Below are positions 7,316-21,762 of a stretch of DNA of 24,000 bases, one piece after another. This DNA is from an uncultured Clostridia bacterium (GTDB taxonomy: Bacteria; Bacillota; Clostridia; Christensenellales; UBA1242): NCBI GenBank assembly GCA_944383345.1, contig CALWPE010000080.1:934-24933 (forward strand), in the 5' to 3' direction. Position numbers and translations under genes: made by a program. Below the pieces are notes generated by a model. It ran no database searches. It worked only from the letters and a program-made list of their open reading frames with translations, and had not been told where the DNA came from. The first letter of the stretch is position 1, and each line of letters begins with the position of its first letter.

Positions 7316-7804
7316 ATGAATGTTTCTGCATGGGTTTTATCAATAGCGGGGGTTAGTGTTTTGTCTATTTTAATTGACCTATTTTTGCCAAACGGAGAAA
7401 CCAATAGTCACATAAAAACGGTTTTTAACTATGTTATTATCTTTGTGATTATTGCACCTTTGCCATCACTGATAAAGTCGGATTTTGATACATCATCAAT
7501 ATTTACAGAATCCGAAATTGTCTTACAAGAAGATTACATTTATCAATTAAACAGAGACAAACTTACTATGCTTGAAACGAGTATGGAAAAAGAATTAGAT
7601 GACAGAGGATTAAAGTATATTGATATATCAATTTCGGCCGATATCTTTACTACTGTTATGAAAATTGAGACGATTTATGTCGATTTTAGTAGTTTAGTTA
7701 TAGTAGGAGATGAAGAGCATATAGATATAGAGAATGAGGCAGTCGATGTAATTACTTCATTTGTAAATATAGAAAAGGAGAATATTGTATTTAGTGGATA
7801 CTAA
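7316..7804 (+). CDS. spoIIIAF: stage III sporulation protein AF
   Basis: 162 aa with two N-terminal TM segments plus a soluble ring-building-type domain. Called from operon position. Confidence 0.8.
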   Translation: MNVSAWVLSIAGVSVLSILIDLFLPNGETNSHIKTVFNYVIIFVIIAPLPSLIKSDFDTSSIFTESEIVLQEDYIYQLNRDKLTMLETSMEKELDDRGLKYIDISISADIFTTVMKIETIYVDFSSLVIVGDEEHIDIENEAVDVITSFVNIEKENIVFSGY

Positions 7805-8339
7805 ACAGAAAAAACAAGGTATATGGGAAAAACTAAAAAACATCAAGCATTTTGAAATTATTGTAGTCATAGTATTTTGTGCCATATTGTTGCTTATTTA
7901 CAGTTCGACCTTTTCTTCCAAAAATAGTGAAGAAAACACACTGACGGCACTAACAACAGAGGAATATGCAGAGTACCTTGAGAATAAATTATCATATGTA
8001 CTCTCACAAATAAATGGGGCTGGAAATGTGAGTGTTATGATTACACTTAGTTGCGGTGTTGAGTATGTGTATGCTACGAATACAACAGAAGAAACCACTT
8101 CTCAAACTGTTGCAGGAACAACAACCACACAAACGACAACAGAAGAAGAATTGATTTTTACATCTCAGGGTGGTAAAGATTCTCCAATAATAATAAAGGA
8201 GAACTTACCAAAAGTTAGTGGAGTGTTGATAGTTAGTAGTGGAGCAAGTGACATAAGCGTAATGATGGAACTGCAAAAAGCAGTTGTAGCATTACTTGAA
8301 ATTGATGCAAATGATATAGAAATTTTAGTTGGTAAATAA
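7785..8339 (+). CDS. spoIIIAG: stage III sporulation protein AG
   Basis: 184 aa with a single N-terminal TM segment and a C-terminal domain ending VSGVLIVSSGASD...VVALLEID...IEIL, typical of SpoIIIAG. The start is uncertain: TTG 7785, or GTG 7794 after AAAGGAG. Confidence 0.85.
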   Translation: MYLVDTKQKKQGIWEKLKNIKHFEIIVVIVFCAILLLIYSSTFSSKNSEENTLTALTTEEYAEYLENKLSYVLSQINGAGNVSVMITLSCGVEYVYATNTTEETTSQTVAGTTTTQTTTEEELIFTSQGGKDSPIIIKENLPKVSGVLIVSSGASDISVMMELQKAVVALLEIDANDIEILVGK

Positions 8340-10893: not shown

Positions 10894-11089
10894 AGAAAAT
10901 ATAAAAAGATTAGAAGAGATTGTAGCACAACTAGAAAGTGGAGAATGTTCGTTTGAGCGAGCAACAACTCTATTTAAAGAGGGTAAGGATATAGCACAAA
11001 ATTGTGCTAAGGTTTTAGATGAGAACAAAGGCAAGATTACGGAACTTGTTACAGAACTTGATAACATCGTAGAACGGGAAATGAAATAA
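10883..11089 (+). CDS. xseB: exodeoxyribonuclease VII small subunit
   Basis: MTFEENIKRLEEIVAQLESGE.SFE....LFKEG matches XseB. I prefer ATG 10883 after AAGGAGA (10870-10876) over the longer ORF start at 10838. Overlaps the xseA end by 11 nt. Confidence 0.9.
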   Translation: MTFEENIKRLEEIVAQLESGECSFERATTLFKEGKDIAQNCAKVLDENKGKITELVTELDNIVEREMK

Positions 11090-11092
11090 TAG

Positions 11093-11121
11093 TTGTATTT
11101 TTAAAGTATTCATGATATAAT
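11093..11121 (+). promoter_or_regulatory. sigma-A-type extended -10 promoter driving the large ncRNA
   Basis: TTGTAT (11093-11098), a 17-nt spacer, then TGaTATAAT (11113-11121). Predicted +1 is near 11128, at the 5' arm of the RNA-closing helix. Confidence 0.6.
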
Positions 11122-11125
11122 ACTT

Positions 11126-11708
11126 ATGAAGGTGCAGTATTCTAGTCAGTTTCAATCACTTGGAAGTTGATACATAAAAGCAACGAAGGGCACAACTGTG
11201 AAGTTTCTGGTGCGTGCTTTGATTGCCCAAATTGGGGTGCGTGCTGGAAGTTAAGATTATTGGGCGAGTTATAACGGCATATAACCCCCGACCCAATTTT
11301 CGCGGAGACCCAAGTTGGTGCTATGCATTTTTAAAATAGTACTGTTTGGGGAGAACCTGCATTGCGGTTAAACAAAAACGGCTGTGTGCAGAGTAGCCTG
11401 CTTTGAGTGGGCTTGTAGGAATAATGCGTTAAAGTAATTTAAAGATTAGGCCAATCGGTAAATCTACTTTGTATTTGAAATCAAGTTTGCAAAAAGAGCT
11501 AAGAGTGGTTCAAACTGTCAAGGAAAACTTCTAGACTGTGACATATAGTCGAACATTTTGGGGATTATAGTGTGGTCTTAGTGGCGATTCGGTGTCAGCC
11601 TTTGCTTAAAAGGAAACTGCCCATGCGGTGACGATGGGTGCGAAGTTTGGGGAAATCCTACCGAACCTATGCCACAAGGTTTACTCAAAGTGTTACCTTC
11701 ATTTTTTT
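11126..11708 (+). ncRNA. ole: large structured noncoding RNA, OLE (ornate, large, extremophilic) RNA candidate
   Basis: The track shows no ORF on either strand between 11090 and 11725. G+C is locally elevated: my hand counts give 28/60 at 11221-11280 and 33/60 at 11581-11640, versus 19/60 at 11761-11820. The terminal helix ATGAAGGT (11126-11133) / ACCTTCAT (11695-11702) closes the element. There are several internal hairpins, for example 11259-11297. The position between xseB and a 4-TM protein upstream of argR-recN is the known OLE/oapA context. Confidence 0.7.
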
Positions 11709-11747
11709 ATTTAAAATTACATACATTAGTATTTGAAAGGAAATAAA

Positions 11748-12500
11748 GTGAAAACAAAACCAAACCCGAAAAATAAAACGGTAAAAAAACAAAGCCATAA
11801 ACAACTTTTATGGTCGCTAAAAGTTTTGATAATATCATTTGCACTCTCAATGTGCTTTGGTGTGCTTAGTGAGTTCTTTCTAAGTGGAACAGGAGTTGTC
11901 ATCTCGGTATTGATTATTATAGTATTTATGTCTATATCAATTCTTACTGATATGATAGGTGTTGCAGTTACTGCTGCCGATATCCAACCATTTAGAGCAA
12001 TGGCATCAAAGAAAATTAGGGGAGCAAAAGAAGCAATCAAGTTAATAAAAAATGCTGATAAGTTTACAAGCATCATCGCCGATGTAGTTGGTGATGTGTG
12101 TGGAATCTTATCAGGTGCAGCAGGCGCAAGTATTATTGTTAAAATTGCTATTGATTCAGAATCTGCTCTTGGAATTATTATTGCTTCACTTGTCAGTGCT
12201 ATTATCGCTAGTTTAACAATTTTTGGTAAATCTCTTGGAAAAAAGTATGCTATGAAAAATTGCAATAAGATAATGCTTGTTGTAGGTAAGGTAATGAGTT
12301 GGTTCACTCCACAGGGTAAAACAAATAAAAAGAACAAGCAAGAACAAAATAAAGACAGCAACGAACAAACCGACCAATTAAACAAAGAACAAGTTGATGA
12401 AGATAAAGATAAAGAGAATGTACATAATGCAGGTGACAATGTAATTCAAGCAGGGACTAAAAACGAAATTGATGATAAAGATGAGAAGGAGAACGATTAG
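11748..12500 (+). CDS. oapA: OLE-associated membrane protein OapA candidate (4 TM) with a charged low-complexity C-terminal tail
   Basis: Sits immediately downstream of the ncRNA. It has four hydrophobic segments (LKVLIISFALSMCFGVL; VVISVLIIIVFMSISILTDMIGVAV; FTSIIADVVGDVCGILSGAAGASII; LGIIIASLVSAIIASLTIF). GTG 11748 follows AAAGGA; TTG 11733 is an alternative start. The tail is K/N/E/D/Q-rich. Confidence 0.6.
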   Translation: MKTKPNPKNKTVKKQSHKQLLWSLKVLIISFALSMCFGVLSEFFLSGTGVVISVLIIIVFMSISILTDMIGVAVTAADIQPFRAMASKKIRGAKEAIKLIKNADKFTSIIADVVGDVCGILSGAAGASIIVKIAIDSESALGIIIASLVSAIIASLTIFGKSLGKKYAMKNCNKIMLVVGKVMSWFTPQGKTNKKNKQEQNKDSNEQTDQLNKEQVDEDKDKENVHNAGDNVIQAGTKNEIDDKDEKEND

Positions 12501-12518
12501 GTTAATCCTTCTTTTTTT
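12485..12518 (+). terminator. probable Rho-independent terminator after the oapA-like gene
   Basis: GAAG..GATTA ggt TAATC CTTC interrupted stem (12485-12511) followed by T7 (12512-12518). The stem is imperfect. Confidence 0.45.
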
Positions 12519-12574
12519 ATGCTTTTTTATACAATGTATATTTATAACTACCATAATCTATTATTATAAAAATT

Positions 12575-12694
12575 TTGAATAATCATAAAAAATCAAATGA
12601 ATAATTATACAAATTTTGCTTGCATAATTATAAATTACATTGTATAATAATTCCAAACAACATGAATAAATATGCGTGCATAATTATTCATAGG
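12575..12694 (+). promoter_or_regulatory. argR promoter with a cluster of ARG-box-like operators
   Basis: Promoter is TTGCAT (12620-12625), a 17-nt spacer, then TATAAT (12643-12648). TGAAT/TGCAT-N4-ATTCA-like cores lie at 12576, 12598, 12621, 12663 and 12677. Positions 12662-12691 form a 14+2+14 inverted repeat (ATGAATAAATATGC gt GCATAATTATTCAT) matching at 13 of 14 positions. Confidence 0.6.
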
Positions 12695-12747
12695 ACGCTG
12701 AATCCCTTTATTTATAAGGGTTGCAGGGTTTTTAAGGAGATACAAAA

Positions 12748-13200
12748 GTGGCAAGGTCATCAAGACAATCAAAGATATTAGAATTGATATCAACTAAAGA
12801 AATATCATCGCAAGATGAGTTGGTTGCGTGTTTAAAAGCAGCAAATTTTGATATAACACAAGCAACAATTTCAAGAGATATCAAAGAACTTGGTCTTATT
12901 AAAATTCAAACTCCAGATGGCAAATATAAGTATGCACTTATGGAGTCTACTGACCAAAGTGTGTCTAATAAAAATATATCTATATTTCGTGAGTCAGTAA
13001 TTTCAATTAAACCTGCAGGCAATTTGTGCGTTATAAAAACCGTCAAAGGTCTTGCTAGTGGAATTTGTGCAATTATTGATAAATTAAATGTAGAAGATGT
13101 AATGGGTTCTGTTTATGGTGACGATACCGTTATGGTAATTATGCCAACTACACTTTCTGCACAAAAAGCAAGTAATACATTAGAACAATTTATAAGATAG
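12748..13200 (+). CDS. argR: arginine repressor ArgR/AhrC
   Basis: RQSKILELI......S.QDELV..L...NFDITQATISRDIKELGL is the winged HTH, and the C-terminus has GDDTVMV (the hexamerisation/arginine-binding motif). GTG start follows AAGGAGA. Confidence 0.93.
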   Translation: MARSSRQSKILELISTKEISSQDELVACLKAANFDITQATISRDIKELGLIKIQTPDGKYKYALMESTDQSVSNKNISIFRESVISIKPAGNLCVIKTVKGLASGICAIIDKLNVEDVMGSVYGDDTVMVIMPTTLSAQKASNTLEQFIR

Positions 13201-16185: not shown

Positions 16186-16809
16186 ATGAAATCTAATATG
16201 TTTGCAAAAAATATATATACTTTACGCTATTCGTTTAAAGAGTTTTTTGCTAGAAATAAGTATAAAATTATTATATGCTTGTTGTTTTGTGTTGTTGGAA
16301 TACTAACAGGCATTTTCACGGCTATTAAAATATTTGATTTAGACGAAGAAGAAATATTTGAAAGTTTTAATTTGACATATCAACTTGATGATTTGGAAAA
16401 ATTTTCAGCCAATTTTTTTGCAAGACTATTATCATACGAACTTGTGCTCATATTGTTGACAATCTTTGCCTTACATCCAGCAATGTTTATTTTTGGTTGG
16501 TGCTTACTTGCTTATAGGGCATTTTTGGTCAGTATAAACTGCATGATGATAATCTTATGCTTTAGTTTTAACGGAATCATAAAATCTCTTTTAATACTCT
16601 TTCCATGTCAAATACTTATGCTTTTATTGATGCTTGCATACTTTTGTTATGTCTGTTATAAAGTCAAAGATTGCAAATATCAAAAACGAAAAAAGTATAG
16701 TGGATTATTATATTGGCTATTTTTAGTTTCTCTTGCACTGACTATCATAAATTTGTTTGAAACAACTTTACTATTTATTTTTAGAAGTAATGTTATACTT
16801 GTTATTTAA
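16186..16809 (+). CDS. polytopic membrane protein, possible stage II sporulation protein M (SpoIIM-like)
   Basis: 207 aa with about 5 TM segments and a SpoIIM-like size and topology. In B. subtilis spoIIM lies in the same neighbourhood as punA and dacF. I could not verify a motif and saw no SD. Confidence 0.35.
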   Translation: MKSNMFAKNIYTLRYSFKEFFARNKYKIIICLLFCVVGILTGIFTAIKIFDLDEEEIFESFNLTYQLDDLEKFSANFFARLLSYELVLILLTIFALHPAMFIFGWCLLAYRAFLVSINCMMIILCFSFNGIIKSLLILFPCQILMLLLMLAYFCYVCYKVKDCKYQKRKKYSGLLYWLFLVSLALTIINLFETTLLFIFRSNVILVI

Positions 16810-21192: not shown

Positions 21193-21762
21193 ATGGAAAG
21201 TTTATATTTTCTCATACCACTATTTTTTGTTATGGTTTTTGTAGTGCCATTGTCAATGCGCATAAAATTTGCTTGCGATATAAACAAAAATCAAACAATA
21301 ATAAGTGCTTTTTTGTGGAAACTAAAATTGATAACTATACGACTTTATATAAAGGACAATAAAATATATTTAATAACAAAGCACAAAAAGAAAGAGATTG
21401 AAATAAAACTTTCTATCAAAGAGATTTACTTTGTTGAAAGTATTGGAGAAAATTTAAAAGACAAGACAACATTAAGAAAACTTGCATTTTGGGGAAAGAT
21501 AGGGCTAATTGATGCAAAGGACACAGCACTTAGTACAGGAAGTTTATTAGTTGCATTAAAATGTATTTTTGCTTACATAAAGAACTATAAACCCACTTGT
21601 TCAATGTCTGCAAATATCACTCCCATTTATGATGATTCTGTGTTGTTATTTTGTGGATATTTAAGTTTTTCAATTACTTTATTTGATTTGTTATTTAGTT
21701 TAATTATTTCATTATTTAGTTTAAGGAGAAAAGCATATGGAAAACAATCAAAATTATCTTGA
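21193..21762 (+). CDS. hypothetical membrane protein, YtfI-like (upstream partner of ytfJ)
   Basis: 189 aa with N-terminal and C-terminal hydrophobic segments. It overlaps the start of the ytfJ-family gene as in ytfI-ytfJ pairs. I recognised no motif. Confidence 0.4.
   Translation: MESLYFLIPLFFVMVFVVPLSMRIKFACDINKNQTIISAFLWKLKLITIRLYIKDNKIYLITKHKKKEIEIKLSIKEIYFVESIGENLKDKTTLRKLAFWGKIGLIDAKDTALSTGSLLVALKCIFAYIKNYKPTCSMSANITPIYDDSVLLFCGYLSFSITLFDLLFSLIISLFSLRRKAYGKQSKLS

Follow-up and report, generated by a model that had tools for sequence, protein, structure and literature searches.

The gap between xseB and oapA in the 24,000-nt stretch of DNA analysed here (the window) is, with a probability that we put at about 96%, the gene for a full-length OLE RNA of ~575 nt, and it is followed by oapA, the gene for the membrane partner of that RNA. 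OLE (ornate, large, extremophilic) RNA is a large structured bacterial RNA that works with the membrane partner OapA, and its full-length form was reportedly described by Puerta-Fernandez et al. in 2006. The window copy is a genuine OLE gene and a further member of this known class, and it falls in a subgroup that lacks hairpin P13. The OLE consensus was updated by Fernando and Breaker in 2024 (PMC11332333).

The first-pass annotation of this DNA had proposed an OLE or OLE-like RNA at this position, and comparison with the Rfam covariance model, run as cmscan, bore the proposal out. RF01071 (OLE) matched at 11113-11715 on the + strand with 399.7 bits and an E-value of 2.2e-114 (gathering score 50), and the match was untruncated, spanning model positions 1-616 of 616. 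It was the sole Rfam match in a scan over the whole 24,000-nt window. When the cmscan alignment was mapped to window coordinates, 211 of the 245 strongly conserved (upper-case) consensus nucleotides proved identical in the window OLE (86%), and canonical pairs were found at 136 of the 148 paired positions of the RF01071 model (92%). By the published criterion for the family, ~25% of OLE positions are near-invariant. Sequence and structure of the window copy agree with full-length OLE from end to end.

The base composition of the region had also been singled out, and the enrichment in G+C was confirmed: 11126-11702 has 42.6% G+C against 31.8% in the remainder of the window, and it is the richest among 937 sliding windows of 577 nt. 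The same region had been described as free of open reading frames, which is essentially correct. The interval from 11089 to 11733 is the largest gap in the window between ORFs of at least 75 aa, though it does contain short runs of up to 62 codons without a stop, including two 46-aa ORFs on the minus strand. Folding by energy alone gave z = -2.84 relative to dinucleotide shuffles, and this model-free fold recovered P1, the P12 stack and four of the model hairpins (those labelled P5-P8 here). The ends of the RNA and the surrounding transcription unit are laid out as follows.

11093..11121, + strand: ole promoter, with -35 TTGTAT at 11093-98, a 17-nt spacer, TG at 11113-14 and TATAAT at 11116-11121
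11126..11702, + strand: OLE RNA, ~575 nt with both strands of P1 included (Rfam match 11113-11715)
11126..11133, + strand: 5' strand of P1, ATGAAGGT (AUGAAGGU), pairing with 11695-11702
11131..11149, + strand: near-invariant 5' motif GGUGCAGUAUUCUAGUCAG, taken from the cmscan alignment and containing a CUAG palindrome
11695..11702, + strand: 3' strand of P1, ACCTTCAT (ACCUUCAU), abutting the 3' strand of P12 with 0 unpaired nt between them
11703..11709, + strand: U7 tract (T7) adjoining P1, probably the 3' end and a partial terminator
11748..12500, + strand: oapA, 250 aa, with a GTG start preceded by AAAGGAAA
12484..12518, + strand: terminator-like hairpin AGAAGGA...TCCTTCT followed by T7, overlapping the oapA stop and seen both in the sequence and in the alignment with relatives

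A helix closing the RNA end to end had been suggested, with covariation as its test. The letters at 11126-11133 (ATGAAGGT) and at 11695-11702 (ACCTTCAT) are exact reverse complements of each other, giving 8 bp, and the MFE fold of the window OLE contains this helix, as does the centroid fold; the Rfam RF01071 model leaves it unpaired. We obtained OLE loci by scanning one genome per species for an exact 18-mer of the 5' motif, which returned at least 120 loci. For 95 OLE loci among the matches listed, the joined 5' and 3' ends were aligned and the pairs counted. In these 95 listed loci, P1 cells were paired in 82.2% of cases versus 68.7% with shuffled partners, double changes were seen in 7 of 10 P1 pairs, and the covariation score was 0.447 versus 0.215 in shuffles, none of 500 shuffles scoring as high. 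As a control, sliding the partners by 1-3 columns gave covariation scores of 0.07-0.22. Compensated changes among the loci include AUGGUGG/CCACCAU, GGAAUGG/CCAUUCC and CAGCGG/CCGCUG. The end-to-end helix is thus exactly complementary in the window and covaries in the family by the shuffle test. It is presumably P1 of the published OLE model, in which P1, P2 and P10-P15 constitute 'domain 2' (PMC12265935). A possible P2 pairing can also be drawn, between GCAGU...CUAG at 11134-45 and CUAGACUGU at 11531-39; the 5' motif was fixed by the locus search pattern, so that the loci are uninformative on covariation inside it.

Immediately upstream, the extended -10 promoter that had been read from the letters (TTGTAT-17-TGaTATAAT) is in place, and each of the 27 distinct upstream regions examined in P13-less relatives has it at the corresponding position. 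In none of the 27 does the -10 element deviate by more than one mismatch; the TG precedes it in 21, and a TTG stands at 16-18 nt spacing in 23; the distance from the end of the -10 to GGUGCAG is 9-12 nt in 25 of them. A generic promoter scan missed the ole promoter, whose -35 hexamer has only 3/6 matches. In H. halodurans, ole reportedly has its own promoter although it sits in an operon (PMC9723947), with which the conserved promoter in the window agrees. We infer a +1 at ~11127-11129, inside the 5' strand of P1. A start near 11128 would place the two outermost P1 pairs outside the RNA and leave 6 bp; over the predicted range of starts, P1 may have 6-8 bp.

At the other end, the T-run noted earlier after the closing helix consists of seven T at 11703-11709. 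A generic terminator scan detected no canonical terminator after OLE, where the U-run follows a multi-branch closing helix and not a compact hairpin. The P13-less relatives divide at this point: P1 is followed at once by a U-run without a hairpin in 7 (the window among them) and by a canonical hairpin with its U-run in ~22, whereas 2 show neither arrangement. This alternation suggests that both arrangements may end the RNA at the same place.

From these features we propose the following course of transcription. The extended -10 promoter, of the sigma-A type, would start transcription at ~11128. Pairing of the adjoining 3' strands of P12 and P1 would then make the terminator stem, and U7 would end most transcripts, yielding an abundant, discrete RNA. 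Read-through past U7 would give oapA mRNA ending at the 12484-12518 hairpin, which probably marks the end of the ole-oapA unit (the generic terminator scan missed this hairpin, its 15-nt loop being too long). Transcripts of nusB-xseA-xseB could also run into ole, because no terminator was found between xseB and the ole promoter. No separate promoter is evident for oapA, which starts 45 nt after the U-run, so its expression probably depends on read-through from ole.

This close spacing, with some co-transcription likely, is what one would expect if the element were a long structured 5' leader of oapA, acting in cis and giving rise to no separate stable RNA. We consider such a leader very improbable. 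The match is to OLE at full length, in ~22 related loci OLE and oapA are separated by a canonical hairpin terminator, and OLE of H. halodurans accumulates as a discrete, abundant RNA of ~630 nt (PMC9723947).

Read as an OLE RNA, the element contains a second long-range helix, P3/P3.1, which is absent from the Rfam model. The features of this helix and of the hairpins that it encloses, which make up domain 1, are given below, with labels P4-P11 inferred from the order of the helices and from text descriptions (e.g. PMC12265935).

11149..11161, + strand: 5' strand of P3/P3.1, 11149-52 pairing with 11512-15 (4 bp) and 11154-61 with 11503-10 (8 bp)
11166..11184, + strand: hairpin with an A-rich loop, probable P4 (dimer contact), 4/5 model pairs canonical
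11204..11250, + strand: 20-bp hairpin with loop GCCCA, probable P5/P5.1, 20/20 pairs canonical
11255..11301, + strand: bipartite hairpin with loop ACGGCA, probable P6/P6.1, 7/9 and 5/5 pairs canonical
11309-50 and 11357-91, + strand: two full-length hairpins, probable P7 and P8, from model helices
11400..11499, + strand: long three-part hairpin, probable P9, with the loop palindrome GGCC at 11449-52
11503..11515, + strand: 3' strand of P3/P3.1, pairing with 11149-61

C11153 opposes C11511, forming the single mismatch between the 4-bp and 8-bp parts of P3/P3.1. The resulting helix of 12 bp agrees with P3+P3.1 of the literature, which is also 12 bp and which has been proposed to span the membrane (PMC12265935). 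Duplex energies support the pairing: native partners averaged -12.4 kcal/mol versus -6.9 kcal/mol for partners swapped between loci (n = 99 among the matches listed; Mann-Whitney p 1.8e-40). The two strands are nearly all different between the window and its nearest relative, locus L120, with complementarity kept.

The loop sequences expected for the published dimer contacts (P4, P5.1/P6.1 and P9) are all present in the window OLE. AUAAAA sits in the 11171-79 loop of the probable P4. UGCC at 11224-27, in the loop of the probable P5/P5.1, and GGCA at 11276-79, in the loop of the hairpin that follows, are complementary, which fits the published intermolecular kissing loops (PMC12265935), and a palindrome in the P9 loop forms a symmetric kissing loop in published work (PMC12286853). 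The anchor spacings across P7, P8 and P9, 262 and 138 nt, are inside the range of full-length OLE RNAs.

Domain 2 follows, and it is here that the window copy departs from the consensus.

11520-30 and 11540-50, + strand: two 3-bp model hairpins flanking the conserved CUAGACUGU (11531-39)
11552..11694, + strand: nested P12 stack, all pairs canonical
11552-62/11684-94, + strand: P12, 11 bp
11571-75/11672-76, + strand: P12.1, 5 bp
11588-93/11660-65, + strand: P12.2, 6 bp
11594..11597, + strand: site where P13 is expected, with ~19 model positions reduced to a single nucleotide at 11596 in the cmscan alignment
11598-605/11640-47, + strand: P14, 7/8 pairs canonical, covarying in the P13-less group
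11619-27/11632-39, + strand: P14.1, enclosed by P14, capped by a GUGA tetraloop (11628-31) and with G11625 bulged out

The local hairpins that the first-pass annotation had picked out by eye can now be set against this structure. The one at 11259-97 equals the family helices 11255-64/11292-301 and 11269-73/11280-84, and the one at 11620-38 corresponds to the model helix 11619-27/11632-39. For the hairpin placed at 11534-50, the model pairs 11540-42 with 11548-50 and nothing else there. The CCTTT/AAAGG hairpin at 11599-613 has to be given up: it clashes with the covarying P14 at 11598-605/11640-47, and its AAAGG lies in a conserved internal loop.

P13 should follow the 5' strand of P12.2 and precede P14; in the window OLE it has been deleted outright, an absence that the first-pass annotation had passed over. 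In H. halodurans, the GNRA tetraloop and single bulge of P13 are the primary high-affinity site for OapB, and the GNRA loop of P14.1 is a weak secondary site (PMC7936274); the OapB-P13 contact is essential in that organism. Without P13, the four-way junction of P12.2, P13, P14 and P15 becomes a three-way junction. The lineage presumably works without OapB, or else via the remaining P14.1 GNRA loop only, which would be the obvious residual OapB site. Neither oapB nor oapC was found within the 24-kb window, the part of the genome that our data cover. We also considered P14.1, with its GUGA loop and a bulge two pairs below, as a specific replacement for P13, and rejected it because many OLE RNAs in which P13 is still present show this bulge-plus-GNRA arrangement in P14.1 as well.

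The spacing of flanking anchors allowed P13 to be followed through the family. It was 52 nt in ~80 of 98 listed loci, where a G-GNRA-C P13 hairpin is clearly present, and 41-47 nt in 12 listed loci, where P13 is shortened and mostly without a GNRA hairpin. In the window (34 nt) and in three genome loci, L120, L028 and L064, the spacing is 33-34 nt and P13 is absent. A metagenome scan recovered the P13-less junction in 31 further contigs, mostly from gut samples, so that the window, the 3 genome loci and the 31 contigs together represent 30 distinct P13-less junction sequences. Within this group P14 covaries, and P14.1 ends in a GNRA loop in all members. Ten P13-less copies were re-scanned; the nine complete ones scored as full-length OLE, at 353-418 bits, and the tenth (L141) was cut by a contig end. 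L141 was 75-83% identical to the window, the best among the contigs compared. The nearest relatives are MAGs of uncultured Clostridia or Christensenellaceae and gut metagenome contigs, and the window bears the sporulation genes spoIIIA, spoIVB and ytfJ.

The recurrence in 30 distinct sequences, together with the full-length scores, argues that the P13 deletion is a maintained subtype, and neither an assembly error nor decay. Erosion would be the natural reading if the window held a non-functional relic of an OLE gene, with loss of P13 as one of its signs. P13, needed for OapB binding in H. halodurans, is indeed missing, and ispA and dxs have also been lost from the locus. We give this reading very little credence. 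The RNA retains 86% of the conserved nucleotides and 92% of the model pairs, the promoter and oapA are intact, and the same deletion recurs in the 30 distinct sequences with compensatory changes in P14 and P3. The OLE DNA, moreover, is better conserved with L120 (83-97% identical to this nearest relative) than are the neighbouring protein genes (55-85%). That the element is a distinct new class of large RNA merely resembling OLE, for which nothing speaks beyond the missing P13 and the lack of annotation of P1 and P3 in the Rfam model, is refuted by the cmscan result to the point of being negligible, since the match covers the whole model at ~8x the gathering score and P1 and P3 are both named in the published OLE model (PMC12265935) and covary across ordinary OLE loci.

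We therefore return to the window element as an OLE RNA, best described as full-length OLE with P13 removed. In common with full-length OLE (RF01071) it has P1, P3/P3.1, P5-P9 hairpins of normal length, the P12 stack, P14 and P14.1, the conserved dimer-contact loops, and a promoter of its own though embedded after xseB; oapA lies directly downstream, and nusB, xseA, argR and recN are neighbours. It differs in lacking P13 (the GNRA loop plus single bulge that is the primary OapB site), in lacking the ispA that most loci have between xseB and ole, and in lacking dxs, tlyA and nadK downstream of oapA.

OLE RNAs that have lost the OapB site, and with them the general nature of the P13-less subgroup, are already known from the literature, so that the loss defines a subtype and does not speak against membership in OLE. 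Those of 'variant 1' are often without the OapB site and come from gut lineages in which OapB and OapC are largely missing, and truncation of P13 has been described in variant OLE RNAs (PMC11332333). The window copy resembles variant 1, found in gut Clostridia of the TANB77 type (PMC11332333), in the loss of the OapB-binding part of P13, in its pared-down locus and in its likely host, an uncultured AT-rich lineage of gut Clostridia. However, the defining mark of variant 1 is that P7, P8 and P9 are short, whereas these stems are full length in the window, and P13 has been wholly removed here, not merely truncated at its tip. Variant 2 (RF39 type) is without P7 and P8, both of which the window keeps, at 11309-50 and 11357-91. 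It is conceivable, and we offer this only tentatively, that the P13-less RNAs make up a coherent OLE subgroup with a full-size domain 1, working without the OapB-P13 contact and, in some members, using the stacked P12/P1 helices plus the U-run as a terminator in place of the separate hairpin; the odds are somewhat against it.

The 250-aa protein encoded after OLE had been described as a four-helix membrane protein, and judged by its predicted features it is the product of oapA. We base this on its four spans, its match to the CNNM family and its conserved position after OLE. Hydropathy places the hydrophobic spans at approximately residues 19-46, 49-77, 113-135 and 140-163. A basic loop at 76-108 has 8 K/R versus 3 D/E, and the tail is acidic and lysine-rich. 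The protein matched the transmembrane domain CNNM/DUF21 of Pfam (PF01595) with 30.3 bits, just above the cut-off of 28.4, and a relationship between OapA and CNNM/MpfA proteins has been published. Of the 97 listed loci with enough downstream sequence, 95 carry an OapA homologue as the next gene after OLE. With OapA/MpfA (CNNM, DUF21) proteins the window protein thus shares the four transmembrane spans, the basic cytoplasmic loop, the CNNM match and the place after ole. It is without CBS or CorC domains, unlike MpfA/CNNM proteins and as expected for OapA, and it differs from OapA/MpfA proteins in a charged, low-complexity tail of 70 residues that aligns poorly even with L120.

OLE genes are typically found in a neighbourhood of nusB, xseA, xseB, ispA, dxs, argR, recN and yqhY/Asp23. 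The gene order in the window is rbfA, an nrnA-like gene, truB, efp, spoIIIAA-AH, asp23/yqhY, nusB, xseA, xseB and OLE, followed by oapA, argR, recN, spoIVB, a purine nucleoside phosphorylase gene, genes for D-Ala-D-Ala carboxypeptidases, scpA/B and ytfJ. The nusB-xseA-xseB-OLE-oapA-argR-recN order on which the first-pass annotation had relied is therefore present, but ispA and dxs, which it had counted as optional parts of that neighbourhood, are simply absent, as are tlyA and nadK, from the stretch of the window that runs from xseB through OLE and oapA to argR and recN. Most listed loci have xseB ~1.2 kb ahead of OLE, with ispA in the interval, and argR at a distance of 4-4.7 kb on the downstream side. 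In the window and L120, the end of xseB and P1 are 37 nt apart, and argR begins 1.6 kb downstream; the ole locus of the window is unusually compact.

What the RNA does in its host can be approached from published work. In the H. halodurans and Clostridium literature, OLE RNA dimerises and is bound by OapA, which keeps it at the membrane; the published OLE complex, a membrane-localised RNP with OapA, OapB and OapC, helps cells to tolerate alcohols, cold, excess Mg2+ and poor carbon sources. By homology, the window copy may dimerise, be held at the membrane by its OapA and contribute to the same tolerances. The chemistry of the OLE particle is still unsolved in the literature.

OLE is among the largest conserved bacterial RNAs with a biochemical job still unsolved, and natural variants help to sort its essential from its optional parts. 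The window copy leaves knowledge of the OLE class as such unchanged. It does show that an OLE of full size persists under selection without P13 while keeping every dimer-contact loop and the P3/P3.1 stem, as it does in at least 30 distinct relatives, and this persistence limits the roles for which OapB, the protein that binds P13, can be required. If the proposed subgroup is real, it would provide a ready-made minimal system for the contributions of OapB and domain 2. Expression studies could also make use of the proposed ole-oapA unit, which would be compact and clearly delimited by its promoter and its end.

A strongly conserved non-coding stretch between oapA and argR was considered as a second RNA and rejected; it matched no Rfam family and corresponds to the argR promoter, flanked by ARG-box-like repeats.

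Comparing the gene content of window positions 11089-12748 with that of the OLE loci L001-L120 revealed that this stretch is missing ispA, whose usual place is between xseB and ole, as well as dxs, tlyA and nadK, which usually lie between oapA and argR. The corresponding stretch of L120, the window's nearest relative, likewise lacked all four genes, and the gap that ispA would fill was also lacking in L001, L072 and L101.

oapA and argR are separated by an AT-rich spacer (window 12519-12747) that was 87% identical in L120 and was also recognisable in at least eight further contigs. Inside this spacer lies TTGCAT-17-TGTATAAT, with several repeats of the TGAATAAnnATnCA type on either side which look like ARG boxes; this sequence arrangement suggests a promoter for argR that is under autoregulation. 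The ArgR proteins of the window and L120 were 98% identical, and neighbouring proteins were 64-79% identical.

A 237-aa minus-strand ORF (window 11726-12439) runs antisense to oapA, the gene of OLE's membrane partner. Because homology and conserved position support oapA, this ORF is almost certainly spurious. The C-terminal tail of OapA (residues ~178-250, window 12300-12500) is charged, of low complexity and rich in K, E, D, N and Q. It aligned poorly and with gaps even to that of L120 (42-59% DNA identity), in contrast to the transmembrane core, which was conserved.

Elsewhere in the window, three ORFs had no Pfam match (0/3):

7785-8339, plus strand, 184-aa ORF at the spoIIIAG position
16186-16809, plus strand, 207-aa ORF directly after spoIVB
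21193-21762, plus strand, 189-aa ORF

NCBIfam, applied to the 207-aa ORF among these, likewise gave no match. In many spore-formers, the place just after spoIVB is occupied by spo0A.

A hairpin of nearly the same sequence, GCUGAUAGC...GCUAUCAGC, followed by a U-run, recurs directly 3' of OLE, just beyond the end-to-end closing helix P1, at loci belonging to several genera (L024, L026, L027, L070, L074, L080, L090, L095, L098 and L114). These genera include Alkaliphilus, Anaeromonas, Caloranaerobacter and Clostridium, together with a Tissierellaceae MAG. The stem keeps its sequence and not just its ability to pair, and this would be unusual in an ordinary terminator. In many Bacilli loci (such as L006, L030, L036, L039, L050, L053, L055 and L062), a UACAUAA motif recurs 10-20 nt 3' of P1, and it could signal processing or the 3' end. 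The window bears a comparable UUACAUACAU at ~11716-11725; because L120 is without it, this match may be due to chance.

The literature holds 24 non-Bacillota OLE matches, ascribed to mis-binning or horizontal transfer. Among our loci, L042, L054, L081 and L056 place OLE in MAGs labelled Actinomycetota and Deltaproteobacteria.
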